From NCBI GenBank assembly GCA_913009635.1, contig CAJVXI010000001.1:2915-66914 (forward strand): a stretch of 64,000 nt of DNA, written 5' to 3'. The stretch's first letter is position 1. Every line of letters begins with the position of its first letter. The notes below the pieces were generated by a model. It did not search any database, was not told the origin of the DNA, and worked only from the letters and a program-made list of their open reading frames with translations. This document shows positions 3,438 to 61,330 of this stretch, one piece after another. The position numbers and the translations under genes are program-made. Source of the stretch: an uncultured bacterium (GTDB lineage: Bacteria; Patescibacteriota; Minisyncoccia; UBA6257; UBA9933).

Positions 3438-3572
3438 CTCTCAAAAATGTAAAATTTAAAAATCAAAAATCAAAATGCCAATGTAAAATTTCAAAATGAG
3501 TTAAAAAAACGAAAACAATTTTAACATTTTGATCTGTCATTTTCCATTTTGATATTTACATTTTGAATTTTT
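3438..3572. repeat. Repeat family A copy that fills the pilB-pilC gap.
   Basis: It runs from the pilB stop to the pilC ATG and has an internal imperfect palindrome. Confidence 0.8.
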
Positions 3573-5325: not shown

Positions 5326-5420
5326 AGACGAGGTTTTAGGATTTAGAATATAGAATATAGGGGTAGGCATTAAAATTTAACAAAACTCCTAAATTCTAAA
5401 TTCTAAATTTTCATAATAAA

Positions 5421-8544: not shown

Positions 8545-8792
8545 AAATCTTTTTTTCAAAAAAATCTTTTCCCGCCAGCCAACAATAGCGCCTAACAATT
8601 TTTCGTTCATCAGCCGTTGTCACCTCGTTCGCTTTACGATTTTCTGGCGGCTTAAAGGACGCTTCGCTCCCGTCAAAAAATCTACTCACTTCGGAACAAC
8701 GCGTTTGAATTCGCTCAAAACATTAGGCGCTATTATAGTAACAGGCTGGCCACAAAAAAGATTTTTGCTTTTCTTTGGCTACAAAAAGATTT
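8545..8792. repeat. MITE-like or structured element with ~22-bp terminal inverted repeats 'AAAATCTTTTCCCGCCAGCC ... GGCTGGCCACAAAAAAGATTTT'.
   Basis: The termini are conserved with the element at 31249-31470. The inner sequences have diverged but are homologous, and each has a nested inverted repeat. Confidence 0.6.
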
Positions 8793-11406: not shown

Positions 11407-11504
11407 AGCTATAAATGTTATAATTGTTCTATCGTTTCGTTTGTTGTAATTGTTTCAACTAAAGCAATTATAACAGTTAGAACATTATAACATTATAACA
11501 TTTC

Positions 11505-11909: not shown

Positions 11910-12112
11910 TGTCAATATACGAATGCGTACTAATGATACGAATAAATAAATACTAATATATGATGCCAATATACTAATGGATACTAATGATACGAATAAA
12001 TACTAATTCAATTCGTATGTATTAGTATAATTAGTATGAATTCGTATATTAGCATTTCACATAAGTATAATTAGCATGAATTAGTATATTAGTATTTCAT
12101 TAAGCGAAGCGT
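11904..12112. repeat. Repeat family C copy, long form. It contains the HIT stop codon and abuts the rpsU ATG.
   Basis: The element runs 'gcgtaatgycaatatacgaatgcgtactaatgatacg ... cattaagcgaagcg' and has imperfect TIRs. Confidence 0.85.
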
Positions 12113-12322
12113 ATGGAATTAAAACGTAAACAAGGAGAACAAATAAGTTCGTTTTTATACCGCTTTTCTAAAAAAATTCAGCAAAGCGGAATTTTACGCG
12201 AAGCAAAAAAACGTCGGCATAAGGATCGTTCGACGTCTAAAAGACAAAAACGGCTTTCAGCCATTTATCGAGTTAAGAAGAAAAAAGAAGTGGAAAAGGC
12301 GAAGAAAATGGGAACACTATAA
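12113..12322 (+). CDS. rpsU: 30S ribosomal protein S21.
   Basis: The pattern 'LYRFSKKIQQSGILREAKKRRHKDRSTSKRQKR' resembles S21 (RRFKR..GIL.E.RRR..Y). Confidence 0.6.
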   Translation: MELKRKQGEQISSFLYRFSKKIQQSGILREAKKRRHKDRSTSKRQKRLSAIYRVKKKKEVEKAKKMGTL

Positions 12323-12410
12323 TTAGCCACTAGCGACTAGCCACTAGTGAATTAGTGTTGAAATAAAATTTCCTAGTGGCTAAACCCTAGTGGCTAGTGG
12401 TTTTATTTAT
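12323..12410. repeat. Repeat family B copy ('ccactagtgattag...ccctagtggctaaaccctagtggct' palindrome).
   Basis: Other copies are at 20461-20561, 47566-47656, 51937-52022 and 55596-55686. Confidence 0.85.
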
Positions 12411-13576: not shown

Positions 13577-14815
13577 TTGGGATTTAGTATTATGTACATC
13601 ACTGCCTTAGATATTGGATCAGCTCAAATTAAGACATTGGTAGCTGAAGTTCAGAAGAATGGACAATTAGCTATAATAAATGTTTTTAAAACACCTTCAG
13701 AAGGAATTCGCAAAGGCGAGGTTATTGATATTGAAGACGCTACTCGTTCAATAAATTCTTCTTTAGCAGAAGTAAAACATTTTAATAAATCCGCGCTTAA
13801 AAATATTTTTGTTAATATTGGTGGAAGTAATGTAAAAATTCATAACTCACGTGGAATTATTGCTGTTTCCAGAGCTGATAATGAAATTAGTCAGGATGAT
13901 ATTGATAGAGTTATTAAGGCATCTCAAGCGATTAATCTTTCTCCAAATAGAATGATTCTTCATACTCTTGCTCGTGAGTTTATTATTGATAATATCAGTA
14001 ACATTAAAGAACCGTTAGGAATGATAGGAACTCGTTTAGAGGTAAATACTTTAATTATTGATGCTTTTTCTCCAGCTGTTAAAAATCTTATTAAATGTAT
14101 TGAAACCGCTGGCGGTAATTTGGGCGGTTTAATTTATGGTCCTTTAGCTGCTGCTCGTTCAGTTTTGACAAAGAATCAAAAAATATTAGGCTCAATTTTA
14201 GTGGATATTGGTTTTGGCACTACCGGTATGGCTGTTTATGAAGATAATAAACTTTTGAATGCTTCTGTTTTTCCTGTTGGTACCGGCAATATTACCAATG
14301 ATTTAGCAATTGGATTAAAATGTTCAATTAAAACAGCTGAAAAGGTAAAACTTTCTTTTGGTTCTGCTTTAGCAAGAGAAGTTCCCAGTAAAGAAAAAGT
14401 TGATATGTATGAAATAGACGAAACTATTAAAGCGTCTCCGAGTCGTAAATTTATTTCTGAAATTATTGAAGTTCGTTTGGCTGAGGTTTTTGAATTTATT
14501 AATAACGAGTTAAAATTTATTGGTAAAATGAGACAGTTGCCGGCAGGCATTGTTCTATGCGGCAGTGGCGCTAAAATGCCTGGAATTGCTGAGTTGGCGA
14601 AACGAGAATTAAAACTGCATGTTCAAATTGGTATTCCTGAGACAGATGTTTTAGAATTAACTAATGCCGAATTCAGCAGTCAGATTGAAGATCCGGAATT
14701 TGCTACTGCGGTTGGACTGTTATTGTGGGGCAATGATCAACTTGCCAGGGATAGTAATTGGCTTCCGATAAAAAAGTTTTCAATAATAAATATTTTAAAA
14801 CATTTCAAACCCTAG
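13577..14815 (+). CDS. ftsA: Cell division protein FtsA. The start may be at 13592.
   Basis: 'ALDIGSAQIKTLVAEV' is an actin-fold phosphate-1 motif. The gene is adjacent to ftsZ. Confidence 0.85.
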   Translation: MGFSIMYITALDIGSAQIKTLVAEVQKNGQLAIINVFKTPSEGIRKGEVIDIEDATRSINSSLAEVKHFNKSALKNIFVNIGGSNVKIHNSRGIIAVSRADNEISQDDIDRVIKASQAINLSPNRMILHTLAREFIIDNISNIKEPLGMIGTRLEVNTLIIDAFSPAVKNLIKCIETAGGNLGGLIYGPLAAARSVLTKNQKILGSILVDIGFGTTGMAVYEDNKLLNASVFPVGTGNITNDLAIGLKCSIKTAEKVKLSFGSALAREVPSKEKVDMYEIDETIKASPSRKFISEIIEVRLAEVFEFINNELKFIGKMRQLPAGIVLCGSGAKMPGIAELAKRELKLHVQIGIPETDVLELTNAEFSSQIEDPEFATAVGLLLWGNDQLARDSNWLPIKKFSIINILKHFKP

Positions 14816-14940
14816 AGTAATCATTAATTAGCGAATAATTGTCTGTCCGCAATGCTTAAGCATAGCGATAGCAGGCGGACGAATATGGCGAATAATAAAT
14901 TTGTATATTCGCAGGAATTCGTCAATTCGCGAATACTTTT
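14816..14940. repeat. Repeat family D copy ('gagtaatcaytaattagcgaata...attcgcgaacact') that fills the ftsA-ftsZ gap.
   Basis: Other copies are at 16117-16213, 26215-26295 and 44752-44807. Confidence 0.85.
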
Positions 14941-16116
14941 ATGAAGCATAAAGAAGAAAAATATACTCTTGCCAGAATTAAAGTTATAGGCGTTGGCGGA
15001 GGAGGAAGCAACGCGATTACAAGAATGAATAAAGATTTTCCGCGCGCAGTTGATTTGATTGCGATTAATACGGACGTTCAAGATCTTAATTATTGTAACG
15101 CTAAAAAGAAAATTCATATTGGTCAAGAAGTTACTAAAGGATTAGGAGCAGGAATGAATCCTGATTTAGGGCGTCAGTCAGCCGAAGAGAATCGCTCTGA
15201 AATTGCGGATATACTCAAAGGAGCGGATATGGTTTTTATAACAGCGGGTTTTGGTGGCGGCACTGGAACTGGAGCTTCGCCGATAATTGCCGAAATAGCC
15301 AGAGATTTAGGAATTCTTACAATAGCTGTTGTTACTAAGCCGTTTAGTTTTGAGGGCTCTCAGCGAAATCAAATTGCTCAAGAAGGCATAATTAAGCTTA
15401 AAGACAAAGTTGATACTTTAATTGTTATTCCGAATGATAGAATTTTTTCTTTAATTGATAAAGATACTTCATTAATTAAAGCTTTTGAAAAGATTGATGA
15501 AGTTTTAAATAATTCAGTTAAGGGAATTACAGAATTAATAATGAATCCCGGCATTGTTAACGTAGATTTCGCCGATGTTAAAACAGTGATGGAAGAAGGC
15601 GGTTCCGCGGTTATCGGAATTGGTTTAGCTAGTGGTCAGGAAAGAGCCCTAAGCGCGGCCAATCAAGCTATTAATTCGCCTCTTTTAGAAACTTCTATTG
15701 ACGGCGCCAAAGGAGTTCTTTTTAGTATTTCCGGGCGTCGTGATTTAAAAATGAACGAGGTTAATGAAATTGCCAAATTAATTTCTGAGAACGTTGATTC
15801 AACTGCTAAAATAATTTTTGGAACATATAATGATAGAAGGATTAGAAAGGGGCAAATTAAAGTGACTCTTATTGCCACTGGATTTGATAATATTTTAAAA
15901 AATAATGATATCACCGGCTTATTTAGTTCAGTTAGCTTAGAAGAAGATTCTTCTCCGGCTACTGCTTCTTCTTTGTTGTCAGATAGCAAAAAAGAAGATA
16001 AAAATAAAGAGGAAAAAAGTAAAGAAATAAAAAAGAATAGTAAAATTGAACCAAAAAAGAAAACAGACGATATTTGGGACATACCGACGTTTTTGAGGAG
16101 AAGGAGAAAAAAATAA
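14941..16116 (+). CDS. ftsZ: Cell division GTPase FtsZ.
   Basis: '[10 protein letters not shown]' and '[10 protein letters not shown]' are tubulin signature motifs. Confidence 0.95.
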
Positions 16117-16213
16117 GAGTAATCGCTAATTAGCGAATACTTGCGAATATACAAATCGTGAATAAATTATTCGCTATATTCGCAGGAATTTGCTAATTCG
16201 TGAACACTCCTTT
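16117..16213. repeat. Repeat family D copy that fills the ftsZ-nrdJ gap.
   Basis: It starts at the ftsZ stop and ends 'ttcgtgaacactcctttATG'. Confidence 0.85.
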
Positions 16214-18793
16214 ATGTTCAGAAAGATTTATAAACGAAACGGCCATACAGTGCCGTTTAAAATTGAAAAAATTACGCAGGCCATTTACAGGGCCTCTATT
16301 GCTGTTGGTGATCCAAATTGGCAAATGGCGAATAATTTTTCCAAAGAGGTAATTAAGCGTCTTGAGAAAAAAATAAAAAAAGGAGCTATTCCAAATGTTG
16401 AAGAAGTGCAGGATGTGGTTGAACAAGTTTTAATAGAAAAGGTTCATCCTCGGATAGCTAAAGCGTATATTTTATATCGTCAGCATCGAGCGGAAATTCG
16501 TCAGGAGAAAAAACAAGTTCTTAATAAAACCGAGATTGATGAAGTTGATAAAAAATTTGACATTAATGCTTTGCGGGTTCTTGCTTCTCGTTATCTTAAG
16601 AAAAATGAGGATGGCAAAATTATTGAATCGCCGAAAGAACTTTTTGAAAGAGTTGCTGTTCATGTTGTTTTGTCATCGCTTTTTTATGACTCTAAAATTT
16701 ATAAAAAACAGAGCGGAACAATAGAACATCGAATTGAAGAATTTGATCCGCAGAAATTTGAAGATAAGTTTTCTATCGGTAAATTTAAACTTAATAGATT
16801 TCATCTGGAAGCCGCTAAAAGAGTTTACGATCGATTTGCCAAAGAAAAGAAAATTAAAGTTTCCTGGATTAAATTTTTAGATTTATTAAAGAAAGGTTAT
16901 TTTTCAAAATATGAAAATGAAATTATCTCTTATTATGATTTAATGGTTAGCAGGCGATTTTTGCCAAATACGCCGACTTTAGCGAATTTTGGCAATCATT
17001 TAGGAATGGGTTCCGGTTGTTTTGCTTTAGGCATAGAGGATTCTATAGATTCTATAATGGATACGTTAAAATCCGCGGCTATTATTTTTAAATCCGGCGG
17101 CGGAGTTGGTTATAATTTTTCTAATTTGCGAGCAGAAGGCGATTTTGTTAAAACAACCAGTGGCGTGTCTTCCGGTCCGATTAGTTTTATGTCAATGTTT
17201 GACGTAATGACAGATGTGATAAAACAGGGCGCTATGCGTCGGGGGGCAAATATGGGAATTTTGAATAGTTCACATCCGGACATTGAAAAATTTATTAAAG
17301 CGAAAGAAGGCAATAAAGCGTTGAGAAATTTTAATATTTCAGTAATGCTTATGCCGGAATTCTGGAGGGCCTACAAAGAAAATAAAACATACGATTTGGT
17401 AAATCCGCGAACAGGGAAACCAGTCAAAGAAATAAACAGTCGTCAACTTTTTGATAATATTAGCCATCAGGCATGGGAATCAGCTGAGCCTGGAATTTTA
17501 TTTTTTGACCGAATCAATGAACATAATCCATTTTTGAAATCTTTAGGGCCGATTGAAAACACTAATCCGTGCAGTGAGCTTCCACTTTATCCAAATGAAA
17601 GCTGTAATTTGGGCTCTATTAATGTGTGGGCTTATTTAAAGAAAAATGGCGATAAGAAACCTAAATTTAATTGGTTGCAATTAGAGCGGGACGTTAAATT
17701 TGCCACACGATTTTTGGATGGCGTAATTGATGTTAATAAATATCCATTAAAAGAGATTGAAGAAATGACTTTAAGCACCAGAAAGATTGGGTTAGGCGTG
17801 ATGGGAGTTGGCGATTTACTTTATGAGCTGGAAATTCCGTATGCCTCTAAGAAAAGCATACAATTCATGGAAGAGTTAATGGAATTTATCAACTATCATT
17901 CAAAGGAAGCTTCAGTGGAATTATCCAAAGAACGCGGCCGGCTGCCATATTTTAGTAAATCGTTTTACAAAGAAGGAAAATTGCCGTTTTCCGGTTTAAA
18001 AGATAAAAAATCATGGCATTTTGATTGGGCTGAATTAATTAAAAAGATTAAGAAGTATGGTATTAGAAATGCCGGAACTACTACTGTTGCTCCAACGGGT
18101 TCCATTTCTATGCTTGCTGGCACATCTTCCGGCATTGAACCAGTTTACAGTTTAGTTTTTGAAAAAAATGTGGCTGTTGGCAGTTTTTATTATGTTGATC
18201 CAGTTTTTGAAGAAGAAATGAGGAAAGCTGGCTTAATGGACGAAGATTTAATTACTGACACTTCTCGTTTTAGCGGCAGTATTCGTCATATTTCTTATAT
18301 CCCAGAAAAATATAAAAAGATATTTGTTACCGCGATGGATGTTGCGCCGTCTGACCATATCAAGGTTTTAGCGTCTTTTCAAAAATGGGTTGATTCAGCG
18401 ATTTCTAAGACTAATAATTTTCCGTCCGAAGCAACGGTTGATGATATTAAAAGAGCTTACCTTTTAGCTTACGAGTTGGGTTGCAAAGGTATTTCTGTTT
18501 ATCGTGATAAATCTTTACATACTCAGGTTTTAGTCGGTGGCAGCACCAAAAAGAAACCCAAGGACATTCAAAGATTGTCTGTTGTTAAAAAAGATGAAAA
18601 AACTAAGGGCTTAGTTGTTTATCATGAATCCGGGACTCAAACAGAGGTCAGTTCTTTAGAATTGCCTCCTATTGAAACAAATAATTCTTTTGAAATTAAA
18701 GAAATTAAAGATTGTCCTAGTTGTAAAATTCCTTTAGTGCGTCAGGAGGGCTGTAAAAAATGTCCGTCATGCGGATGGGGAATGTGTTCGTAA
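16214..18793 (+). CDS. nrdJ: Class II (adenosylcobalamin-dependent) ribonucleotide reductase with an N-terminal ATP-cone and a C-terminal zinc ribbon.
   Basis: ATP-cone 'MFRKIYKRNGHTVPFKIEKI', active-site 'NTNPCSELPL' and C-terminal 'CPSCK...CKKCPSCG'. Confidence 0.8.
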   Translation: MFRKIYKRNGHTVPFKIEKITQAIYRASIAVGDPNWQMANNFSKEVIKRLEKKIKKGAIPNVEEVQDVVEQVLIEKVHPRIAKAYILYRQHRAEIRQEKKQVLNKTEIDEVDKKFDINALRVLASRYLKKNEDGKIIESPKELFERVAVHVVLSSLFYDSKIYKKQSGTIEHRIEEFDPQKFEDKFSIGKFKLNRFHLEAAKRVYDRFAKEKKIKVSWIKFLDLLKKGYFSKYENEIISYYDLMVSRRFLPNTPTLANFGNHLGMGSGCFALGIEDSIDSIMDTLKSAAIIFKSGGGVGYNFSNLRAEGDFVKTTSGVSSGPISFMSMFDVMTDVIKQGAMRRGANMGILNSSHPDIEKFIKAKEGNKALRNFNISVMLMPEFWRAYKENKTYDLVNPRTGKPVKEINSRQLFDNISHQAWESAEPGILFFDRINEHNPFLKSLGPIENTNPCSELPLYPNESCNLGSINVWAYLKKNGDKKPKFNWLQLERDVKFATRFLDGVIDVNKYPLKEIEEMTLSTRKIGLGVMGVGDLLYELEIPYASKKSIQFMEELMEFINYHSKEASVELSKERGRLPYFSKSFYKEGKLPFSGLKDKKSWHFDWAELIKKIKKYGIRNAGTTTVAPTGSISMLAGTSSGIEPVYSLVFEKNVAVGSFYYVDPVFEEEMRKAGLMDEDLITDTSRFSGSIRHISYIPEKYKKIFVTAMDVAPSDHIKVLASFQKWVDSAISKTNNFPSEATVDDIKRAYLLAYELGCKGISVYRDKSLHTQVLVGGSTKKKPKDIQRLSVVKKDEKTKGLVVYHESGTQTEVSSLELPPIETNNSFEIKEIKDCPSCKIPLVRQEGCKKCPSCGWGMCS

Positions 18794-20476: not shown

Positions 20477-20561
20477 CCACTAGTGATTAGTGTTGACAAC
20501 AAAGTTTTTTAGTGACTAACTCCCTAGTGGCTAGTGGCTAATTTACTAGTGGCTTAAATTT
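20461..20561. repeat. Repeat family B copy between secD and secF.
   Basis: The sequence runs 'agccactagcgactagccactagtgattag...ccctagtggctagtggctaatttactagtggc'. Confidence 0.85.
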
Positions 20562-22532: not shown

Positions 22533-22630
22533 AGAATTGTTAAATTGTTATATTGTTATTTATTTAATAAAAAAAAACTCGTAAAATTCATTTCAACAAT
22601 TTAATAATTTAACAATTTAGCAATAAATTT

Positions 22631-24570: not shown

Positions 24571-24774
24571 AGCGTAATGCCAATATACGAATGCGTACTA
24601 ATGATACAAATAAATAAATACTAATATATGATGCCAATATACTAATGGATACTAATGATACAAATAAATACTAATTCGTATGTATTAGTATAATTAGCAT
24701 GAATTCGTATATTAGCATTTCACATAAGTATAATTAGCATGAATTAGTATATTAGCATTACATTAAGCGAAGCA
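24571..24774. repeat. Repeat family C copy, long form.
   Basis: Nearly identical to 11904-12112. It ends 'cattaagcgaagcaATG'. Confidence 0.85.
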
Positions 24775-26214
24775 ATGAGAGAAGGTAAAATCCAAATAAT
24801 TAAATACGCTCCGCCTCCACCGGATTTACCAATCTATGGTCAGGTAGATCCAAATGAAACTTCTTTTTTTGGCAGGACCAATTACGAGGCAGGTTTAGAA
24901 TCAAAAAGATTCATTTTTGGCATTAAAAGACGAGATAGGCGTCGCCATTTTTATGTTGTTGGTAAATCAGGGGTTGGTAAATCAAAACTTTTAGAATTAT
25001 TAATTCGTCAGGACATTACTTATGGACATGGTTTGTGTCTGATGGACCCGCACGGTGATGTTATTGCTAATATTCTTGATTTTATTCCCGAGCATAGAAT
25101 AAAAGACGTAGTTTTAATTGACCCTTCGGATACTCAATGGCCGGTTTCTTTTAATCCATTGATGAATATTACTCCTGAACTGAAGCATCAAGTTACTCAA
25201 GGTTTGATTGAGGTAATGGAAAAACAGTTTGGCGCTAATTGGACTCCACGGTTGGAGCATGTTTTTAGATTTACATGTTTGGCTTTATTGGATTATCCAG
25301 GTGCAACAATGAGAGGGATGATTTTAATGTTAACTGACAGGAATTATCGTCACAAAGTTATTGAATATATTGAAGATGAAATGGTTAAGCGGTTCTGGGC
25401 GATTGAATTCGCTGATTGGTCAGAGAAATTTGATACAGACGCTATTATCCCTTTAGTAAATAAATTAGGACAATTTCTTTCAAATCCTTTACTTCATTAT
25501 ATTTTTGGCCAAAAAGACAATAAAGTTGATATTCAAAAGATAATGAATGAAGGAAAAATTCTTTTAATTAATTTGTCTAAAGGAAAGTTAGGAGAAGAAA
25601 ATTCCAGTTTTTTCGGTTCAATGTTTATTACTAAAATTCATCAGGCAGGCATGGCAAGAGCTGATATATCCGAAGAAGAGCGAAAGGATTTTTATCTGTA
25701 TGTTGATGAGTTTCATAATGTAGTTACTGATACTTTTATCAATGTTATAACTGAAGCGAGAAAATACGGTATTTGCGCAACTTTAGCTCATCAATATCGA
25801 GCCCAGCTTCCTATACAGATTATGGCAACTATTTTGGGTAATGTCGCTAATATTGTTATTTTTAGAGTTGGCGGAGATGATGCCAAGTTTTTTGAGAAAG
25901 AAATGACACCTGTTTTTAAAGATAAAGATATGATTAATCTGGGAATGCAGGAATTTTATATCAAGATGACTATTGACGGTGAAACTCATGATCCTTTTTC
26001 AGCTGAAACTTTAAAAATTCTTTCACCTACGCATCCTTCTTATAAAAATGAAATTATTGAATATAATCACAAAACGTATTGTTTGCCATTAGAAGAAGTA
26101 AAAAGAAAAATTACTGAAGCAGAAGGATTAACTGTACAGCAGCAGTCAAAGGTCGCAGAAACCACTCCTGGCGAGTCTCGTTCTGATGAACGGAAAGAAG
26201 AGCCAATCGTGTAA
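24775..26214 (+). CDS. TraG/TraD/VirD4-like (type IV coupling protein family) P-loop ATPase, soluble form without N-terminal TM helices.
   Basis: Walker A 'VGKSGVGKSKLL', Walker B 'FYLYVDEFHN', then 'EARKYGICATLAHQYRAQL', which resembles the VirD4 'DEF.N...E..R.YG....QS..QL' region. It is a paralogue of 28852-30501. Confidence 0.5.
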   Translation: MREGKIQIIKYAPPPPDLPIYGQVDPNETSFFGRTNYEAGLESKRFIFGIKRRDRRRHFYVVGKSGVGKSKLLELLIRQDITYGHGLCLMDPHGDVIANILDFIPEHRIKDVVLIDPSDTQWPVSFNPLMNITPELKHQVTQGLIEVMEKQFGANWTPRLEHVFRFTCLALLDYPGATMRGMILMLTDRNYRHKVIEYIEDEMVKRFWAIEFADWSEKFDTDAIIPLVNKLGQFLSNPLLHYIFGQKDNKVDIQKIMNEGKILLINLSKGKLGEENSSFFGSMFITKIHQAGMARADISEEERKDFYLYVDEFHNVVTDTFINVITEARKYGICATLAHQYRAQLPIQIMATILGNVANIVIFRVGGDDAKFFEKEMTPVFKDKDMINLGMQEFYIKMTIDGETHDPFSAETLKILSPTHPSYKNEIIEYNHKTYCLPLEEVKRKITEAEGLTVQQQSKVAETTPGESRSDERKEEPIV

Positions 26215-26295
26215 GAGTAATCACTAATTAGCGAATACTCGCGAATATAGCGAATTCGCCATATTCGCAAAGATTTGTAATTCGCGAACACTCCC
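26215..26295. repeat. Repeat family D copy.
   Basis: It fills the gap to cutA. The antisense ORF 26067-26297 is partly its translation. Confidence 0.85.
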
Positions 26296-26601
26296 ATGAT
26301 ATTTATTTATACAACTTGCCAAACTGCTGATGAAGCTAAGAAAATCGGCAAAATGATTATTGAAAAGAAATTAGCTGGCTGCGTTAATATTTGGCCTATC
26401 AATTCAATGTATTTTTGGAAAAACGAATTTAAAGAAGAGGAGGAAACAGTGCTTTTAATAAAGACAATTGAAGCAAGACTTCAAGAGATTGAAGATTTAA
26501 TTCAGGGCAGTCATAGCTATAGTGTTCCTTGTATTGCAACTATAGATATTAAGCGGATAAACCGTCCATATAAGGAATGGTTGGCGCAATGCATTGAGTA
26601 G
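26296..26601 (+). CDS. cutA: Divalent-cation tolerance protein CutA.
   Basis: The full-length CutA1 pattern is present ('IYTTCQTADEAKKIGKMIIEKKLAGCVNIWP'). Confidence 0.75.
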   Translation: MIFIYTTCQTADEAKKIGKMIIEKKLAGCVNIWPINSMYFWKNEFKEEEETVLLIKTIEARLQEIEDLIQGSHSYSVPCIATIDIKRINRPYKEWLAQCIE

Positions 26602-31248: not shown

Positions 31249-31470
31249 AAAATCTTTTCTTGCCAGCCAAGCTAAGTAAAAATCTTTTCTCGTTCGTAGT
31301 GCTACACCAAATGAAAATCTTACTTCGCTCATAACTAGAAAATACCACCCTGCTACGCGGGTACCCGGTATTTTCTCTATTCGCTCAGAGATTTTCTATT
31401 CGGCTCCGCAATACTCTCTGTGAAAAGATTTTTGCTTAGTTAGTTAACGGGCTGGCTACAAAAAGATTTT
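31249..31470. repeat. MITE-like or structured element, second copy, with termini 'AAAATCTTTTCTTGCCAGCC ... GGCTGGCTACAAAAAGATTTT'.
   Basis: The termini match 8545-8792. It has the nested inverted repeat 'gctaagtaaaaatcttttc ... gaaaagatttttgcttagtt'. Confidence 0.6.
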
Positions 31471-31502
31471 CTACTAGTCTTAATTGAGAAAAATAAGAAA
31501 AT

Positions 31503-31980: not shown

Positions 31981-33219
31981 ATGAAAGCAAAAGATAAAAA
32001 AATCGTATTCGTAGCGCTATCAGGCGGCGTTGATTCAAGTGTTGCGGCTTTATTATTAAAAAAACAGGGCTATTATGTAGTTGGTGTTTTTATGCGTTGT
32101 TGGAGAGATGAAAGCCCCGACGCTTCGGTCGGGGCAAGCTGTATGGAAAAAGATGCTGAAGATGCCAGAAAGGTGGCGGAAAAATTGGAAATTCCTTTTT
32201 ATGTTTGGGATTTTGAAAAAGAGTATAAGAAAAGAGTGGTTGATTATATGGTTAATGGTTATAAAAAAGGCATCACTCCTAATCCTGATGTAATGTGCAA
32301 TAAAGAAATCAAGTTTGGTTTGTTTTTGGAAAAAGCGCTGAAGATGGGAGCGGATTATGTGGCAACGGGACACTATGTCCGGCTTTACAGCGTTGTAAAT
32401 GTTCAAAATGTTGTAGATGTTGTAAATGAAAAACAATTACAACAAGCGAAGCGATCCAACAAGCGAAGCGATACAGCATTACAACTTTTTGAGGCTAAGG
32501 ACAAGAATAAAGACCAATCTTATTTTCTTTGGACCTTAACGCAAAAACAATTACAGCATTGCCTTTTTCCTATTGGTGATTATTTGAAGTCCGAAGTTCG
32601 GAAAATCGCTAAAAAAGCTGATTTATTAACAGCTGAGAAAAAGGATTCTCAGGGTATTTGTTTTTTGGGCAAAGTAACACTTGATGATTTTTTGGGTAAA
32701 TATATTCCTAAAAAGAAAGGGGATATTATTAATATTTCAGGGGAAAAAATCGGCGAACACAAAGGCGCTTATTTTTATACTATTGGCCAGCGGCGCGGAC
32801 TTGGAATTGGCGGCCGCCCAATAAAATTGGGCGAGTCTCGTCCCAAAGGGACGGGAGGCGCACCTTATTATGTCGTTGAAAAAGACGTTAAGAAAAACAT
32901 TATTAAAGTTGCCGAAGGAAAAAGCGAAGCGCTTTATAAAAAAGAAATTGAATTATCGGATGTTAATTTTATCAATCCTATAATTCATAATTCAAAATTC
33001 ATAATTCCAGTGTTGGCTCGGGTGCGTTATAGGCAGCCTTTAATAAAAGCCAAATTAGTAATTAGTAATCAGGAATTAGTAAATAGGAAAAACAAAAAGT
33101 CCCTAGTTACTAGTTACTATTTACTATTTACTGAGCCCATTAAATTCATCGCTCCTGGCCAGTCAGCAGTGTTTTATAGTTCAAAAGGTGAAATGTTGGG
33201 CGGAGGTGTGATAAAATAA
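31981..33219 (+). CDS. mnmA: tRNA-specific 2-thiouridylase MnmA with small repeat insertions.
   Basis: PP-loop 'VALSGGVDSSV' and the region 'CNKEIKFGLFLEKA'. In-frame repeats are at 32108-32135, 32441-32473 and 33095-33135. Confidence 0.85.
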   Translation: MKAKDKKIVFVALSGGVDSSVAALLLKKQGYYVVGVFMRCWRDESPDASVGASCMEKDAEDARKVAEKLEIPFYVWDFEKEYKKRVVDYMVNGYKKGITPNPDVMCNKEIKFGLFLEKALKMGADYVATGHYVRLYSVVNVQNVVDVVNEKQLQQAKRSNKRSDTALQLFEAKDKNKDQSYFLWTLTQKQLQHCLFPIGDYLKSEVRKIAKKADLLTAEKKDSQGICFLGKVTLDDFLGKYIPKKKGDIINISGEKIGEHKGAYFYTIGQRRGLGIGGRPIKLGESRPKGTGGAPYYVVEKDVKKNIIKVAEGKSEALYKKEIELSDVNFINPIIHNSKFIIPVLARVRYRQPLIKAKLVISNQELVNRKNKKSLVTSYYLLFTEPIKFIAPGQSAVFYSSKGEMLGGGVIK

Positions 33220-33223
33220 TATT

Positions 33224-33760
33224 ATGATTATTATTTTTACGGGAAACGGAAAAGGTAAAACAACTGCAGCATTGGGGCAGGCGATTCGTGCTTTGGGGCA
33301 GGAGAAGAAAGTTTTGATTATTCAGTTTATAAAAAATATTTCTAGCGGCGAACATAAATTTTTTTCCTCTTTCCTCTTTCCTCTTTCCTCTTTTAGAATC
33401 ATTAAAGGAGGTAAAGGGTTTGTAGGAATTTTAGGCGACAAGCTTCCATTTTCCGAACATAAAAAAGCCGCGCAAAAAATATTAAAATTAGCAGCCCAAA
33501 AAATTAATCCGCCAGCTGGCGGAAAAAAATACGATTTGATTGTTTTAGACGAAATAAACGTGGCTGTAAATTTGAAATTGTTAAGCGCTAAAAAAGTATT
33601 GGATATTTTAAAAAATTTTCCTAAAGACAAAGACATAATTTTAACTGGCCGTAGCGCGCCAAAAAGTTTTATAAAAATAGCTGATTTAGTGACTGAAATG
33701 AAAGAAGTTAAGCACCCGTTTAAAAAAGGCGTGAGGGCAAAAAAAGGAATTGAATTTTAA
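33224..33760 (+). CDS. Cob(I)yrinic acid a,c-diamide / cob(I)alamin adenosyltransferase (CobA/CobO/BtuR family) with an in-frame (cctcttt)n insertion.
   Basis: P-loop 'IIFTGNGKGKTTAALG' and 'LIVLDEI'. The insertion at 33359-33394 'tcctctttcctctttcctctttcctctttt' encodes 'FSSFLFPLSSF'. Confidence 0.7.
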   Translation: MIIIFTGNGKGKTTAALGQAIRALGQEKKVLIIQFIKNISSGEHKFFSSFLFPLSSFRIIKGGKGFVGILGDKLPFSEHKKAAQKILKLAAQKINPPAGGKKYDLIVLDEINVAVNLKLLSAKKVLDILKNFPKDKDIILTGRSAPKSFIKIADLVTEMKEVKHPFKKGVRAKKGIEF

Positions 33761-42118: not shown

Positions 42119-42187
42119 TAATTTTTATATCTCTAATTCGCGCGAATGGTAGAATGAAGAAAGTTTTTGTTATATAATAATTGAGAT

Positions 42188-42448
42188 ATGCGAAATTTAG
42201 AAAAAAATTTAAAAGTGTTAGCTAATCGGCGGCGCTTGGCCATACTTAAGTATTTAAAACGCAATAAGGAGGCACCAGTGGCAGAAATTGCTCATGAAAT
42301 CAATTTATCATTTAAAGCCACTTCAAAACACCTTTGTATTTTAGCTGCTGTTGATATTATTAAGAAAGACCAGAGAAATTTACAAATGTTTTATCGTTTG
42401 TCTACTAGTCAAAACCCAGTAGTTAAACATATTTTTTCTCTTCTTTAA
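42188..42448 (+). CDS. ArsR/SmtB-family HTH transcriptional regulator.
   Basis: 'LANRRRLAILKYLKRNKEAPVAEIAHEINLSFKATSKHLCILAAVDII'. Confidence 0.6.
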   Translation: MRNLEKNLKVLANRRRLAILKYLKRNKEAPVAEIAHEINLSFKATSKHLCILAAVDIIKKDQRNLQMFYRLSTSQNPVVKHIFSLL

Positions 42449-42512
42449 TTATTTTTTAATTTCTTTTTAACCTTCTCTAATTCGCGCGAATTAGAGAATA
42501 GTAAAGAATAGT

Positions 42513-42821
42513 ATGGATAAAATAAAAATTAATTGGCTTACTAAAATATTTTTAAAACTTTGGCCAAAATTGGCAATGAAGCATTTCGCAAAAAAGATGG
42601 GTATCAATAATTCATTATTTGACCAAGCCCACGAAGTTTTTTCTCAAACTAACCGCATTGATATTTTGCCATTAAAATCCGGGCATCGTGGCTTTATGAT
42701 TATTATGGACAGGAAAACCGCTCTTTATTTTTATCAAGACAACGACCATTTTATTTATGATGGTTTTGAGATGAGGAAATATAACAAAGGCGATGTGATA
42801 ATATTTGATAATGTTAAATAA
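42513..42821 (+). CDS. Hypothetical protein.
   Basis: ORF only, with no motif. Confidence 0.3.
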   Translation: MDKIKINWLTKIFLKLWPKLAMKHFAKKMGINNSLFDQAHEVFSQTNRIDILPLKSGHRGFMIIMDRKTALYFYQDNDHFIYDGFEMRKYNKGDVIIFDNVK

Positions 42822-44111: not shown

Positions 44112-44337
44112 ATTATTGACAATTATCAGCTTATTTTGTTATTATTTATAGGCCTTTAATGAGGTTTTTATTTTTCCCGATTTTATATGAGCGTAGCGAA
44201 TTAATAAAATTGAGGACCACGTTAGATAAAGCCCTGTCCCATTAGATATTTATCTAACGGGGTGGACTCATCTAACGGGGTGCTTAATTTTATAGATAAA
44301 TTTTATCGCTTTGCTCAAAAATTTATACAAAATTCGT

Positions 44338-44751
44338 ATGCCAACATTAAATCAATTAATTAAAAATAAAAGAAAGAAAGCCAAAAAGAAATCCAAATCA
44401 CCTGCGATGGGTTTTTATTTTAATACTATACAAAATAAACCTGTTTATTCTAATTCGCCTTTTAAAAGAGGTGTTTGCCTGAAGGTGTTTACAACAACGC
44501 CAAAAAAACCGAATTCCGCTTTGCGAAAAGTTGCAAGAGTGCGGTTAACCAACGGAATGGAAGTAACGGCTTATATTCCAGGCCAAGGACATCAACTTCA
44601 GGAACATTCAGTAGTAATGCTTAGGGGAGGGCGAGTTAAGGATTTGCCTGGAGTGAGATACCATATTGTTAGAGGAGTTTTGGATACAACCGGCGTAGAG
44701 GGTAGAAAGCAAGAAAGGAGCAAATATGGAACAAAGCGTTCCAAAGAGTAA
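44338..44751 (+). CDS. rpsL: 30S ribosomal protein S12. The ORF opens at 44311 and the canonical MPTLNQL start is at 44338.
   Basis: '[14 protein letters not shown]' and '[16 protein letters not shown]'. Confidence 0.95.
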
Positions 44752-44807
44752 TCACTAATTAGCGAATACTTGCGAATATAGCGAATTCGCCATATTCGCG
44801 AACACTC
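44752..44807. repeat. Repeat family D copy, short form, that fills the rpsL-rpsG gap.
   Basis: 'gagtaatcactaattagcgaatacttgcgaatatagcgaattcgccatattcgcgaacactcATG'. Confidence 0.85.
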
Positions 44808-45281
44808 ATGAGAAGAAAACGTAAATATAAAAAACAATATAGTTCTGATATTCAATATGACAGTATTGCTGTTGGTCGTTTTATTAATTATTTAATGGAA
44901 GACGGTAAAAAATCAGTGGCTGAAAAAGTTCTTTATGGTGCTTTTAAAAATATAGAGAAAGAAATAAAGCATGTGAATAACGCACTTTCGGTTTTTGAGA
45001 AGGCACTTGAGAACGTTTCGCCAGTATTGGAAGTAGTTTCGCGTCGCGTCGGCGGTGCTAATTATCAGGTCCCAAGAGAAGTAAGGCCGGAACGAAAGTT
45101 TTTTTTGGCTTGTAATTGGATTCTTGAAGCAGCTCGGTCGCGTAAGGGGAAGCCAATGGCGCAGAAATTGGCCGAAGAATTAATTATGGCATCCAATAAT
45201 GAAGGAGCGGCCATTAAGAAAAAAGAAAATGTTCGAAGAATGGCGGAAGCTAATAGGGCGTTCGCTCATTTCGCCAGATAG
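44808..45281 (+). CDS. rpsG: 30S ribosomal protein S7.
   Basis: The S7 pattern is present, including 'LENVSPVLEVVSRRVGGANYQVP'. Confidence 0.95.
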   Translation: MRRKRKYKKQYSSDIQYDSIAVGRFINYLMEDGKKSVAEKVLYGAFKNIEKEIKHVNNALSVFEKALENVSPVLEVVSRRVGGANYQVPREVRPERKFFLACNWILEAARSRKGKPMAQKLAEELIMASNNEGAAIKKKENVRRMAEANRAFAHFAR

Positions 45282-47565: not shown

Positions 47566-47656
47566 AATAGCCACTAGCCACTAGTGATTAGGGTTTAGGG
47601 TTTTAATTTAAGTATTTTAACCCTAGTGGCTAAACCCTAGTGGCTAATCACTAAAA
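47566..47656. repeat. Repeat family B copy.
   Basis: It fills the gap from the fusA stop to the ATG at 47657. Confidence 0.85.
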
Positions 47657-47860
47657 ATGGATACTTATTTAAAAATTAAACAAACCTTAAATAATAGCAG
47701 TGGCTCTTGTGTTGTTCTTCGTAAAGGCGATCCTTATTGCGTAGTAATGACTTGGCAAGAGTATGAAAAATTTGCTAATATAATTAATGATAATAAAAAA
47801 TTAAAAAACGGTCGAGAAAAAATTGGAAATGGGGTTGACATAAATAGTATCCCCGTGTAA
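47657..47860 (+). CDS. Small Phd/YefM-like (antitoxin-fold) protein inserted between fusA and tuf.
   Basis: 'GSCVVLRKGDPYCVVMTWQEYEKFANI' resembles the Phd/YefM 'vitr.gkpvaVlms.eeye'. Confidence 0.35.
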   Translation: MDTYLKIKQTLNNSSGSCVVLRKGDPYCVVMTWQEYEKFANIINDNKKLKNGREKIGNGVDINSIPV

Positions 47861-47939
47861 AATTAAAAATTATGAAACATGAAGTATGAAGCGTGAAACA
47901 TAAAGTTTCAAGTTTCAAGTTTCAAGTTTCAATAGAAAT

Positions 47940-51936: not shown

Positions 51937-52022
51937 CTAGCCACTAGCCACTAGCCACTAGTGATTAGGGTTTAGGGTTTTAATTTTTAACCCTAGTGGC
52001 TAAACCCTAGTGGCTAATCACT
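51937..52022. repeat. Repeat family B copy that fills the rplW-rplB gap.
   Basis: 'ctagccactagccactagccactagtgattagggtttagggtttta...ctaatcactATG'. Confidence 0.85.
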
Positions 52023-52844: not shown

Positions 52845-52934
52845 TATCAGCAAAAATCCGCATAAATCAGCGTAAGGACATCATAAACGCTGATTAATGC
52901 TGATACGGCTGATTTATGCTGATAAATTATAAAA

Positions 52935-53866: not shown

Positions 53867-53952
53867 AATAACTAACGACTAACGACTAACAACTAACGAC
53901 TAATAATTTTTTAAGTCGTAGGTTATAAGTCGTGAGTCATAAGTCAAATAAA
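53867..53952. repeat. Palindromic tandem repeat: (taacgac)n followed by its inverse (gtcgt..taagtc)n.
   Basis: 'aactaacgactaacgactaacaactaacgactaa...ttaagtcgtaggttataagtcgtgagtcataagtc'. Confidence 0.7.
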
Positions 53953-55157: not shown

Positions 55158-55170
55158 TTATTAAGTTATT

Positions 55171-55368
55171 ATGAAACAGAAAGACAATCAACAATTTAAA
55201 AACAAACCTTTGCCGGAGCTTAGGGAAAATTTAGCTGATTATCATGAAAAATTGAGGAAATTGAAATTTGACTTAGCTGCGGGCAAGGTGAAAAATATTA
55301 GAGAGATTAAAGCGATTAAAAAGTCAATCGCCAGAGTTTTAACTGCAACAAGTAATAACAATCAATAA
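55171..55368 (+). CDS. rpmC: 50S ribosomal protein L29.
   Basis: Size, position and the 'ELRE...LRKLKFDLA' pattern. Confidence 0.85.
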   Translation: MKQKDNQQFKNKPLPELRENLADYHEKLRKLKFDLAAGKVKNIREIKAIKKSIARVLTATSNNNQ

Positions 55369-55369
55369 T

Positions 55370-55606
55370 ATGAAACGTAAATTACAAGGAATAATAGTTT
55401 CAGATAAAATGAATAAAACTAGAGTGGTAAGCACTACTCGGCTTAAAAAACATTCAAGATATTTGAGGCGTTATAAAGTAACCCAAAAATTTAAGGCGCA
55501 TGATGAAAATAACGAATATAAAATTGGTGATAAAGTTATTATTGAAGAAACGAAACCAATAAGTAAAGATAAACGGTGGATTATAAAAAGCAAAATTAGC
55601 CACTAG
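55370..55606 (+). CDS. rpsQ: 30S ribosomal protein S17. Its last codons and stop lie within the repeat family B copy.
   Basis: 'KLQGIIVSDKMNKTRVV'. Confidence 0.9.
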   Translation: MKRKLQGIIVSDKMNKTRVVSTTRLKKHSRYLRRYKVTQKFKAHDENNEYKIGDKVIIEETKPISKDKRWIIKSKISH

Positions 55607-56052: not shown

Positions 56053-56158
56053 GCGTAATGCCAATATACAAATGCGTACTAATGATACGAATAAATACTA
56101 ATTCGTATCCATTAGTATAATTAACATGAATTAGTATATTAGCATTTCATTTATTAGT
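56053..56158. repeat. Repeat family C copy, short form, that fills the rplN-rplX gap.
   Basis: 'gcgtaatgccaatatacaaatgcgtactaatgatacg...'. Confidence 0.85.
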
Positions 56159-57070: not shown

Positions 57071-57074
57071 AATT

Positions 57075-57260
57075 ATGGCAAAAAAATCAGTAATAGCTCG
57101 AGCAAAAAAGAAGCCAAAATTTTCTACAAGAGACGTGAAAAGATGTTTTCGTTGCGGTCGAAAACGAGGTTATATGCGCGATTTTGGTCTTTGTCGCATT
57201 TGTTTCAGGGAAATGGCGAGTAGAGGTGAAATACCCGGAGTGAAAAAAGCAAGCTGGTAA
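57075..57260 (+). CDS. rpsZ: 30S ribosomal protein S14, type Z (zinc-binding).
   Basis: '[23 protein letters not shown]'. Confidence 0.9.
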
Positions 57261-57265
57261 AAATT

Positions 57266-57651: not shown

Positions 57652-58197
57652 ATGAGTAAAATAGGTAAAAAACCAATAGAGATTCTAGAAGGAATTGAAG
57701 TCAAAATTAATGGCGGCGAATTAGAATTGAAAGGAAAAAAAGGAGAAATGTCAGTAAAAATTCTTCCGTATGTTAAAATAGAAATTAAAGACAACCAAAT
57801 CCTTTTTGATATTCAAGTCAATTCTAAACAAGCGCGGGCTAATTGGGGGACAATACGGTCATTAGTTCAAAACGCTGTTTTGGGATTAAATGAAGGGTTT
57901 ACAAAGATTTTAGAAATTAATGGTGTTGGCTATCGTGCGGAAATGCAAGGAGATGACTTAATTCTTAATATTGGCTTAAGCCACTCCGTAAAAGTAAGCT
58001 CACCTGAAAATATTAAAATTTCCGTTGAAAAAAACATTATCAAGGTTTTTGGGGTTGATAAAAGTATAGTAGGAGAAATAGCGGCTAAAATTAGAGCTTG
58101 CAAGAAACCAGAGCCGTATAAAGGAAAAGGAATTAGGTATCAAGGAGAAGTGGTGCAAAGAAAGGCAGGGAAGAAGGTAGCTGGAACCGCAACATAG
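57652..58197 (+). CDS. rplF: 50S ribosomal protein L6.
   Basis: 'SKIGKKPIEI'. Confidence 0.95.
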   Translation: MSKIGKKPIEILEGIEVKINGGELELKGKKGEMSVKILPYVKIEIKDNQILFDIQVNSKQARANWGTIRSLVQNAVLGLNEGFTKILEINGVGYRAEMQGDDLILNIGLSHSVKVSSPENIKISVEKNIIKVFGVDKSIVGEIAAKIRACKKPEPYKGKGIRYQGEVVQRKAGKKVAGTAT

Positions 58198-58399
58198 CGT
58201 AATGCCAATATACAAATGCGTACTAATGATACGAATAAATAAATACTAATATATGATGCCAATATACTAATGGATACTAATGATACGAATAAATACTAAT
58301 TCGTATATATTAGTATAATTAGCATGAATTCGTATATTAGCATTTCACATAAGTATAATTAGCATGAATTAGTATATTAGTATTTCATTAAGCGAAGCG
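58198..58399. repeat. Repeat family C copy, long form, that fills the rplF-rplR gap.
   Basis: Nearly identical to 11904-12112 and 24571-24774. Confidence 0.85.
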
Positions 58400-58723
58400 A
58401 TGAATTCAAGAAAAACATTAAATAAAATAATACAGAGAAGAAAGATGAGGACTCGAAGTAAAATACACGGTACTGCTAGTAGGCCGCGATTTTCGATTTT
58501 TAGAAGCAACCAAACTGTTTATGTTCAATTAATTGATGACAAAGAAGGTAAAACTTTAGTCAGCGCGTCAACAAAAGAGTCAAAGAATTTAGGAGAATTA
58601 ATTGGTAAAAAGGCGTTTGAAAAAGGTATTAAAAAAGTGGTTTTTGATAGAGGTTCATACAAGTTTCATGGTCGAATAAAAAAAATAGCCGAAGAAGCGC
58701 GAAAAGCAGGACTACAAATATAA
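58400..58723 (+). CDS. rplR: 50S ribosomal protein L18.
   Basis: '[20 protein letters not shown]'. Confidence 0.9.
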
Positions 58724-59753: not shown

Positions 59754-59952
59754 AAATTTTGCTACTTACTCTGAAGCAGAACTTGCAAAAAACCTTTTAG
59801 AAAACAATGATATTAAATCAATGCTTCAAAAGGGGGATATTGCAGTTGCGGGAGAATTTAGTGGATATGCTGGTGACGCGAATTTATTTGTTTTAGAAAA
59901 AGATCACAATAAAGCAAAAGAAATTTTAGGAATTAAAGATAATAGGGATTAA
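59731..59952 (+). CDS. DUF2007-like small protein inserted between rplO and secY. It overlaps the rplO 3' end by 23 nt.
   Basis: 'YSEAELAKNLLENNDIKSMLQKGDIAVAGEFSGYAGDANLFVLEKDHNKAKEIL' matches the DUF2007 pattern. Confidence 0.4.
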   Translation: MNNLIFLKNFATYSEAELAKNLLENNDIKSMLQKGDIAVAGEFSGYAGDANLFVLEKDHNKAKEILGIKDNRD

Positions 59953-59953
59953 C

Positions 59954-61222: not shown

Positions 61223-61262
61223 TAAAAAATTTCTAATTTCTAATTTCTAATTTCTAATCAAT
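61223..61262. repeat. (ttctaat)n tandem repeat.
   Basis: 'aaaaatttctaatttctaatttctaatttctaatc'. Confidence 0.8.
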
Positions 61263-61330
61263 TTTTAATGTTCTAATGTTTAAAAATTAAAGAATTATAA
61301 ATTTATTAAAAATTAATAATTAAAAATTCT

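Follow-up and report, generated by a model that had tools for sequence, protein, structure and literature searches.

The stretch of DNA analyzed here, hereafter called the window, comprises 64,000 nucleotides of contig CAJVXI010000001.1 and belongs to a metagenome-assembled genome of Candidatus Wolfebacteria, an ultra-small bacterium; its FtsZ has 100% identity with a protein annotated to such a genome. Its GC content is 33%, and nearly all its genes lie on the + strand. Pfam searches identify among them FtsA (13577-14815) and FtsZ (14941-16116), followed by a ribonucleotide reductase (16214-18793), a TrwB/TraG-like ATPase (24775-26214) with CutA (26296-26601) behind it, and the ribosomal proteins S12 (rpsL, 44311-44751) and S7 (rpsG, 44808-45281). 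Four of the junctions between these genes are filled by copies of one repeat, family D, whose structure, distribution and probable nature are the subject of this report.

A preliminary description of the window had proposed four copies of the repeat, and these are real. Over the whole window, the head GAGTAATCRYTAATTAGCGAATA has exact matches at 14815, 16117, 26215 and 44746, all on the + strand, while none of 100 dinucleotide-preserving shuffles of the window contains a match; an nhmmer profile made from D copies finds these four sites and no fifth. The invariant head AGAGTAATC..TAATTAGCGAATA is thus common to four same-strand copies, with 0 expected by chance. L026, which adds 9.6 kb on the right-hand side (loci fetched for comparison carry L numbers) and brings the stretch examined to about 74 kb, has no additional copy; on the left, a look-up of the protein encoded at 1288-1686 gave no record by which the contig could be extended. 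Copy 1 (14814..14940, 127 nt, + strand) leads from the ftsA stop to the ftsZ ATG, sharing 2 nt with the TAG stop of ftsA and ending 2 nt short of the ftsZ ATG. Copy 2 (16116..16213, 98 nt, + strand) connects the ftsZ stop to the ribonucleotide reductase ATG, and copy 3 (26214..26295, 82 nt, + strand) reaches from the stop codon of the gene for the TrwB/TraG-like ATPase to the ATG of cutA. Copy 4 (44745..44807, 63 nt, + strand), between rpsL and rpsG, supplies from its head the last codon and stop of rpsL (AAA GAG TAA) and directly abuts the rpsG ATG at its 3' end. All copies are extragenic, save for this 7-nt overlap with the end of rpsL. The four sites were correctly located in the preliminary description, but the true starts lie 1-2 nt earlier and overlap the stop codon; the start of copy 4, given there as 44752, is 44745, with the rpsL GAG TAA inside the repeat head. 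Likewise, the whole spacer is indeed filled at each site, though not exactly from stop to start, since the copies overlap the upstream stop codon at their start and leave 0-4 nt before the next ATG. The antisense peptide RIWRIRYIR[E/K]YSLISDYS, said to be common to the open reading frames (ORFs) 26067-26297 and 44598-44855, was found in both. D repeats matter for gene calling, as they give rise to spurious ORFs on the antisense strand and, in one copy, provide a gene with its stop codon.

A full copy is composed of three parts: a head, near-perfectly palindromic in itself; an inner palindrome, whose loop is variable; and a tail complementary to the head. These parts are best seen on the + strand of copy 2, the most complete D hairpin with 38 pairs: the head (16117..16142, AGTAATCGCTAA/TTAGCGAATACT) pairs in the long hairpin with the tail (16184..16209, …AATTTGCTAATTCGTGAACACTC), which is the more variable of the two among copies, and the inner palindrome (16143..16183) consists of GCGAATATA, the variable loop and TATATTCGC. 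Each D-filled spacer folds as one long hairpin, and the copies beat shuffled sequence (z -3.6 to -8.5, n=4), with folds of -39.7 kcal/mol for copy 1 (z -3.6), -40.7 kcal/mol for copy 2 (z -8.5), -27.4 kcal/mol for copy 3 (z -5.2) and -19.2 kcal/mol for copy 4. The words CGAAT and ATTCG recur in D every 9-10 nt. Its ends are complementary (GAGT…ACTC, extending imperfectly) only within the whole-length palindrome, and copy 4 and the copy in L018 lack the 3' arm. Copy 1 contains an extra, GC-richer hairpin of 40 nt (14841..14880, + strand) that both alignment and fold show to be missing from the other copies, and for which neither the rest of the window nor the fetched loci have a convincing match. 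Copy 4 differs from copy 3 by one substitution over the first 49 nt and by a 17-nt deletion between ATTCGC direct repeats. The D copies are shown to descend from one another, and to have then gained or lost short segments between word repeats.

Comparison with syntenic relatives supports the earlier view that D is a dispersed repeat filling spacers, and not a conserved ftsA-ftsZ regulatory region. Between ftsA and ftsZ, where the window has 125 nt of D, L024 has 5 nt and L022 has 182 nt of unrelated hairpins (FtsZ 84% identical in each case), and L025 (FtsZ 72% identical) has 84 nt of AATTTTCAATTTACA words unrelated to D; D sequence is therefore missing from this spacer in relatives with 72-84% identical FtsZ. 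The 97 nt of D at the ftsZ-nrd junction correspond to 10 nt in both L022 and L024 and to a 182-nt GAATTTAG-word hairpin in L025, and the 56 nt of D between rpsL and rpsG to 2 nt in L029 and L031 and to 181 nt of the GGATTTAG family in L030. A profile search of the syntenic stretches L022-L025 found no D copy (L029-L031 were outside that search). In L024, the spacers measure 3-12 nt at most junctions. Judging from the sequences of these relatives, the D-bearing junctions are shown to have been originally tiny (2-10 nt). D is small, non-coding and multi-copy, and its presence is polymorphic at orthologous sites, as in miniature inverted-repeat transposable elements (MITEs). Alignment of the window with the NODE_89 contig (95.6 kb) gave 99.95% identity and 0 indels, and is uninformative on the micro-evolution of the element.

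Outside these syntenic stretches, a scan of metagenomes with the head pattern recovered true D copies in several unrelated contigs, at non-orthologous sites, and not only at ftsA-ftsZ as a conserved regulatory region would have it. D lies between the genes of a small membrane protein and of a 594/703-aa protein in L005/L012, and between two genes in L013/L018, where the upstream ORF ends …K E * by means of the head's GAG TAA. The other copies are found in leaders: in L008, 17 nt downstream of a TTGTCA-N17-TAAGAT promoter, and in L010/L014/L016 ahead of the 16S rRNA gene, following a TTGACA-N17-TATAAT promoter. L010 has a second, diverged D-like copy at the junction orthologous to 3438-3572, where the window holds a different family. 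All eight independent D copies, as well as this diverged one, are in sense orientation relative to transcription. The proteins of L010 are 46-72% identical to their window orthologues, yet the D head is the same. In an alignment of nine D copies, the head carries 22 of the 32 invariant columns; as copies in other genomes were found by their heads, this apparent conservation of head over tail is biased, but the existence of near-identical copies in divergent genomes is unaffected. The exact inner-palindrome pattern has no match in the fetched loci, because loop length varies.

Scans of other sequence collections with the head pattern were not fruitful. Among genome contigs they yielded three single chance matches, all in Bacteroidota, and neither the source genome nor a D-bearing relative; among viral contigs there were 0 matches, and hence no sign of a phage vector. 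The chance matches in L001, L006 and L015 (Rikenellaceae-like) and in L003 (Mucilaginibacter) lie inside heptamer-word arrays or hairpins of their own (GGTAATCGGTAGTCGGTAATCAGTAATCAGTAATTAG…), and comparable word-built intergenic elements seem to exist in this other phylum poor in Shine-Dalgarno sites.

Scans for known expression signals found none in D. No sigma-70-like promoter (-35 and -10 hexamers with 16-18 nt spacing) is present on the + strand in 14814-14940, 16116-16213 or 44745-44807, and no intrinsic terminator (GC-rich stem followed by a U tract) on the + strand of copies 1, 2 and 4. D tails end in …ACACTC(C); the window does have canonical terminators in other places, one of them after 42077. 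Upstream of rpsL there is a good str promoter, and copy 4 therefore lies within an operon transcript. The region 44116-44310 itself consists of a strong sigma-70-like promoter (TTGACA-18-TATTAT with TG), then a structured leader of about 165 nt with repeated ATCTAACGGGGTG words, then rpsL, and the leader may be an element of the str operon. The whole window has 0 matches to Rfam 15 at the gathering score, and ARAGORN finds in it no tRNA and no tmRNA. An NrdR box and a ribosomal-protein S7 leader were excluded as readings, D sitting at unrelated genes. TIGR arrays, known from bacteria of the candidate phyla radiation (CPR) and from phages, are tandem units with box C motifs and box D motifs beside a Nop-domain Tas gene; the D sequences read contain no TGATGA…CTGA box C/D motifs, D units are single and dispersed, and no Nop-domain (Tas) family appears in the Pfam scans or gene tables of the window genes.

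We consider it probable, though well short of certain, that D, 56-127 nt long, is a dispersed and non-autonomous palindromic DNA repeat, which has been copied into minimal gaps of co-transcribed genes and, in related genomes, into 5' leaders. D would have inserted in gaps originally 2-10 nt long and, in those other genomes, also just downstream of promoters. Each copy would then be transcribed within the operon mRNA and fold as a long stem-loop, whose base would bring the upstream stop codon and the downstream ATG together. The host has few Shine-Dalgarno sites: a core motif (GGAG, GAGG or AGGA at positions -20 to -4) precedes 3 of 70 genes, the regions upstream of start codons are A/T-rich, and T is found at -1 in 45 of the 70. 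Translation initiation thus appears, from these upstream sequences, to be essentially Shine-Dalgarno-independent. In such a genome, which probably relies on stop-start proximity, the compact fold could explain why the insertions are tolerated. The most likely secondary effects would be processing by a double-strand-specific nuclease (RNase III type), a barrier to 3' exonucleases and a modulation of coupling. The palindrome itself would have been made at the DNA level and have decayed neutrally since, with no upkeep as a selected sense-strand RNA structure.

Several observations weigh against this interpretation. No mobilizing enzyme, no separate terminal inverted repeat and no target-site duplication was found, so that D can be called mobile by virtue of its distribution alone. 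Indeed, no transposase was detected in about 74 kb of genome, either by Pfam (29 window ORFs) or in the L026/L028 gene tables for the remaining genes, and the sequences flanking the copies (…T, …ATA, …GTA and …CAA on the left; ATG, CCATG and CTTTATG on the right) include no duplication. Moreover, pure neutrality is difficult to square with heads that are nearly identical in genomes whose proteins share 46-72% identity: neutral non-coding DNA is not expected to outlast divergence of the L010 level, which implies either horizontal or recent spread, or selection on the D sequence. The sense orientation of all copies could mean function and not tolerance; it could equally be a replication-strand bias, which is possible because nearly all window genes share one strand.

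An adaptive role at the RNA level is the alternative that we took most seriously, although we judge it unlikely. D would then be a cis-acting element, an intercistronic hairpin selected for re-initiation, mRNA stability or RNase III processing: either the terminating ribosome would melt the head, freeing the tail beside the ATG for re-initiation independent of a Shine-Dalgarno site, or the hairpin would set segmental mRNA stability or RNase III processing, as in some REP, ERIC and Correia elements. In copies 1-3 the hairpin base is suitably placed for this, at a distance of 0-2 nt from the stop and of 0-4 nt from the ATG, but with spacers of 2-10 nt any insertion would span stop to start, and the bridge is not kept in copy 4 and L018, which have no tail. 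The constant sense orientation, the near absence of Shine-Dalgarno sites, the occurrence of D in an rRNA leader, where processing hairpins are usual, and the conservation of its sequence across divergent genomes all agree with a selected RNA; close relatives, however, do without D at the same junctions. The preliminary description had suggested looking for a conserved hairpin across copies, and over nine aligned copies the shared pairing is found, with 86% of cells paired in the common long hairpin versus 31-47% after a shift of the 3' partners by 1-3 columns, but covariation is not: a single compensatory pair is present, and shuffles reach scores as high. Covariation is uninformative here, the D head being invariant. 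Stem mismatches comprise 24 G·U, 21 A·C and 14 others without strand bias, so that G·U has no advantage over A·C, and the sense RNA is the stabler strand in 20 of 40 spacers; for copies 3 and 4, the antisense RNA would even fold better than the sense. The near-equality of G·U and A·C and the balance between sense and antisense imply that transitions on either arm erode an initially better palindrome, without a preference for sense wobble. The D palindrome therefore looks to have originated at the DNA level and decayed neutrally, and not to be a hairpin maintained by selection on the sense RNA.

Selection could instead act on DNA. D would in that case be an operator cassette, in which the 24-nt palindromic head and the GCGAAT/ATTCGC words 9-10 nt apart bind a dimeric protein, putatively a nucleoid protein or global regulator, which would act on the genes downstream. 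We find this distinctly improbable. A head invariant in nine aligned copies from several genomes while the tail varies, a word period of about 10 nt and a strand-symmetric palindromy are what such a site would display, but the conservation of the head is partly one of ascertainment, the copies having been found by it. Similarly, D lies 17-34 nt downstream of the -10 box in L008 and L010, a position typical of operators, whereas the window copies are inside operons with no promoter nearby, ahead of genes that have no common function and that lack the site in close relatives. A related perfect palindrome, TCTCTAATTCGCGCGAATTAGAGA, adjoins small helix-turn-helix (HTH) genes at 42130-42497; on the other hand, AATTCGCG is weakly enriched (8 matches versus 3.7 expected), and dozens of word families of the same architecture would each require a protein of their own. 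Independent birth of the copies in place, by slippage or template switching of short words and with no copying between sites, has very little to recommend it. Arrays of words with periods of 7-10 pervade the spacers and even reach inside coding regions, and D indels do fall between word repeats, but convergence cannot account for a head of 24-35 nt that is identical in all four copies of the window and in other genomes; local slippage accounts for the diversification of D copies, and is effectively refuted as their origin. The least credible proposal, to which we give next to no weight, is that D represents a regulatory region conserved at ftsZ, as promoter or leader, and that the other copies were misjudged. 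In model bacteria, ftsZ promoters lie upstream, within ftsA, which lends the idea its appeal; it is ruled out by the three other D copies, which are unambiguous, by the lack of D sequence at ftsA-ftsZ in relatives, and by the lack of a promoter-like site in D.

The non-autonomous repeat that we favor is one among many hairpin families in this genome. Co-directional spacers reach at least 40 nt in 45 of 61 cases (median 86 nt), with many word-hairpin families other than D; as these statistics derive from a map of ORFs of 80 aa or more, they slightly overcount non-coding DNA. Most of these spacers are imperfect hairpins, one arm being made of words of 7-10 nt and the other of the complementary words; AATTTCT, TAGCCAC/TTAGGGT, ACTAACG, AAGTTTC and ATTGTTAT are examples. 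Such word hairpins occupy 1248-1287, 5326-5420, 11407-11504, 20477-20561, 22533-22630, 24571-24774 and 47566-47654, as well as 51937-52022, 52845-52934, 53867-53931, 56053-56158, 58198-58399 and 61223-61330, and are found at nearly every junction of the S10/spc ribosomal-protein cluster. A 204-nt family has two copies, 24571-24778 and 58196-58403, that are 97% identical. Identical word families are present at different sites in other genomes, including inside the 16S rRNA gene of L010. Five long 'spacers' (11910-12389, 47655-47939, 55158-55590, 57071-57265 and 59754-59953) hold short genes under the 80-aa cut-off, for which the L026/L028 tables call L29, S17, S14, a 67-aa ORF after fusA and a DUF2007-like ORF.

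Word repeats are also observed within genes. In mnmA (ORF 31981-33219), they are joined by a complementary-arm word-hairpin, AATTAGTAATTAGTAATCAGGAATTAGTAAATAGG … CCTAGTTACTAGTTACTATTTACTATTTACT, at 32980-33132, which is in frame and lengthens the C-terminal barrel of MnmA, and (TTTCCTC)x4.4 is located at 33363-33393 inside the CobA/BtuR-like ORF 33224-33760. Word-hairpins of the AATTCTAAAT/ATTTAGAATT family are inserted in the 16S rRNA gene of L010 (896-3793), near 968-1110 and 1215-1400, and a LAGLIDADG ORF is present at 1644-2159 of the same locus. This family is also found in intergenic spacers, at 5326-5420 of the window and in L025, L030 and L031, and the sharing of one family links short insertions in CPR rRNA genes to intergenic hairpin repeats. 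Two further features of the window deserve mention. The perfect 24-bp palindrome TCTCTAATTCGCGCGAATTAGAGA and its partial copies (core ATTCGCGCGAAT), at 42130-42146 and 42474-42497 in the window and near 14170 and 14440 in L026, lie upstream of two small genes, of which 42188-42448 has HTH_5/HTH_20 and 42513-42821 has no recorded Pfam family; the palindrome is probably an operator, with a half-site similar to the D tail (TAATTCGCG). The window also has two non-coding blocks, each about 240 nt long (8545-8792 and 31249-31490), which are framed by AAAATCTTTT…GCCAGCC and GGCTGGC…AAAAAGATTTT and have a similar inner layout. Neither has an Rfam match, and they may be structured RNAs or another repeat class.

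CPR bacteria are regarded as extremely streamlined, yet hairpin repeats of at least 40 nt are present here at 45 of 61 same-strand junctions, most of which are gaps of only 2-12 nt in close relatives. Family D shows that such hairpins are inserted and turn over fast between relatives, while still being shared among fairly distant genomes, and this bears on how translation is initiated and operons are expressed without Shine-Dalgarno sites. D and the dozens of word palindromes could conceivably form one lineage-wide system of Paceibacteria/Wolfebacteria, which would be generated and spread without a transposase, prefer stop-to-start junctions and RNA leaders, act through bridging or RNase III hairpins, and be the same as the short insertions in CPR rRNA genes. 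This generalization is speculative and in our opinion rather unlikely. In the searchable literature, no description of such elements in CPR bacteria was found.

By analogy, D resembles REP, ERIC, Correia and BOX elements in its behavior. The repetitive extragenic palindromes (REP) and the related BIME and REPIN of Enterobacteria and Pseudomonas are described as multi-copy imperfect extragenic palindromes, often located in operons or just past stop codons; they are co-transcribed and generate no target-site duplication, and their RNA hairpins can alter mRNA decay and translation of the upstream gene (PMC3116915, PMC3333891, 10.64898/2026.03.23.713779). REPs are 20-40 nt long and GC-rich, have a conserved 5' GTAG, often form inverted pairs and are tied to RAYT (Y1) transposases, whereas D, 56-127 nt long and AT-rich, occurs as single units with the head AGAGTAATC…, has neither a GC-rich palindrome of 20-40 nt nor a GTAG-type 5' tetranucleotide, and is not accompanied by a RAYT among the window genes. 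The effect of REPs, according to Liang and Deutscher in 2015, is reportedly linked to proximity to the stop codon.

D also resembles hairpin-forming MITE-like repeats. Correia/NEMIS elements in Neisseria, ERIC/IRU in Enterobacteria, and RUP and BOX in Streptococcus pneumoniae are non-coding, about 60-150 nt long, and form a long RNA hairpin when co-transcribed; whether an orthologous intergenic site carries them differs between relatives, and variants with internal deletions are known. Correia and ERIC elements are bounded by defined terminal inverted repeats and by TA duplications, and in some of them there are promoters or sites for integration host factor (IHF). D shares with this type its size, hairpin fold, site polymorphism and internal-deletion variants, but not the duplication, which is also that of classical MITEs (overview in PMC3184786); it also has no promoter-like site, and its terminal complementarity exists only through the overall palindrome.

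The closest published parallel for word repeats that abut start codons in Shine-Dalgarno-poor genomes is the TAACTGA heptamer, an intergenic direct repeat of Beggiatoaceae, Cyanobacteria and Bacteroidetes with patchy sharing among distant lineages (PMC4679880). TAACTGA repeats are purely direct and tandem, a single heptamer repeated without a complementary arm, unlike D, in which words spaced by about 10 nt are arranged as a palindrome together with a unique conserved head. Palindromic repeats have also proliferated in the reduced genome of Rickettsia, where these Rickettsia palindromic elements (RPE) are tolerated in unusual places. RPEs measure 100-150 nt and are typically in frame within coding genes, whereas D is extragenic apart from its short overlap with rpsL; it is the non-D word-hairpins in frame inside mnmA that recall the placement of RPEs.

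Finally, the rRNA genes of CPR bacteria contain many short insertions (<200 bp), with no ORF and no similarity to introns, at the tops or bases of stem-loops (PMC11270868). Like intervening sequences of rRNA in general, which are hairpins inserted into an essential transcribed RNA and either tolerated or cut out by RNase III, they have a parallel in L010, with its spacer-family word-hairpins inside the 16S gene and D in the 16S leader. D differs in that no copy was seen inside an rRNA gene itself, and cleavage by RNase III is putative for all of these elements. D-type repeats may help to account for where the short insertions in CPR rRNA genes come from.

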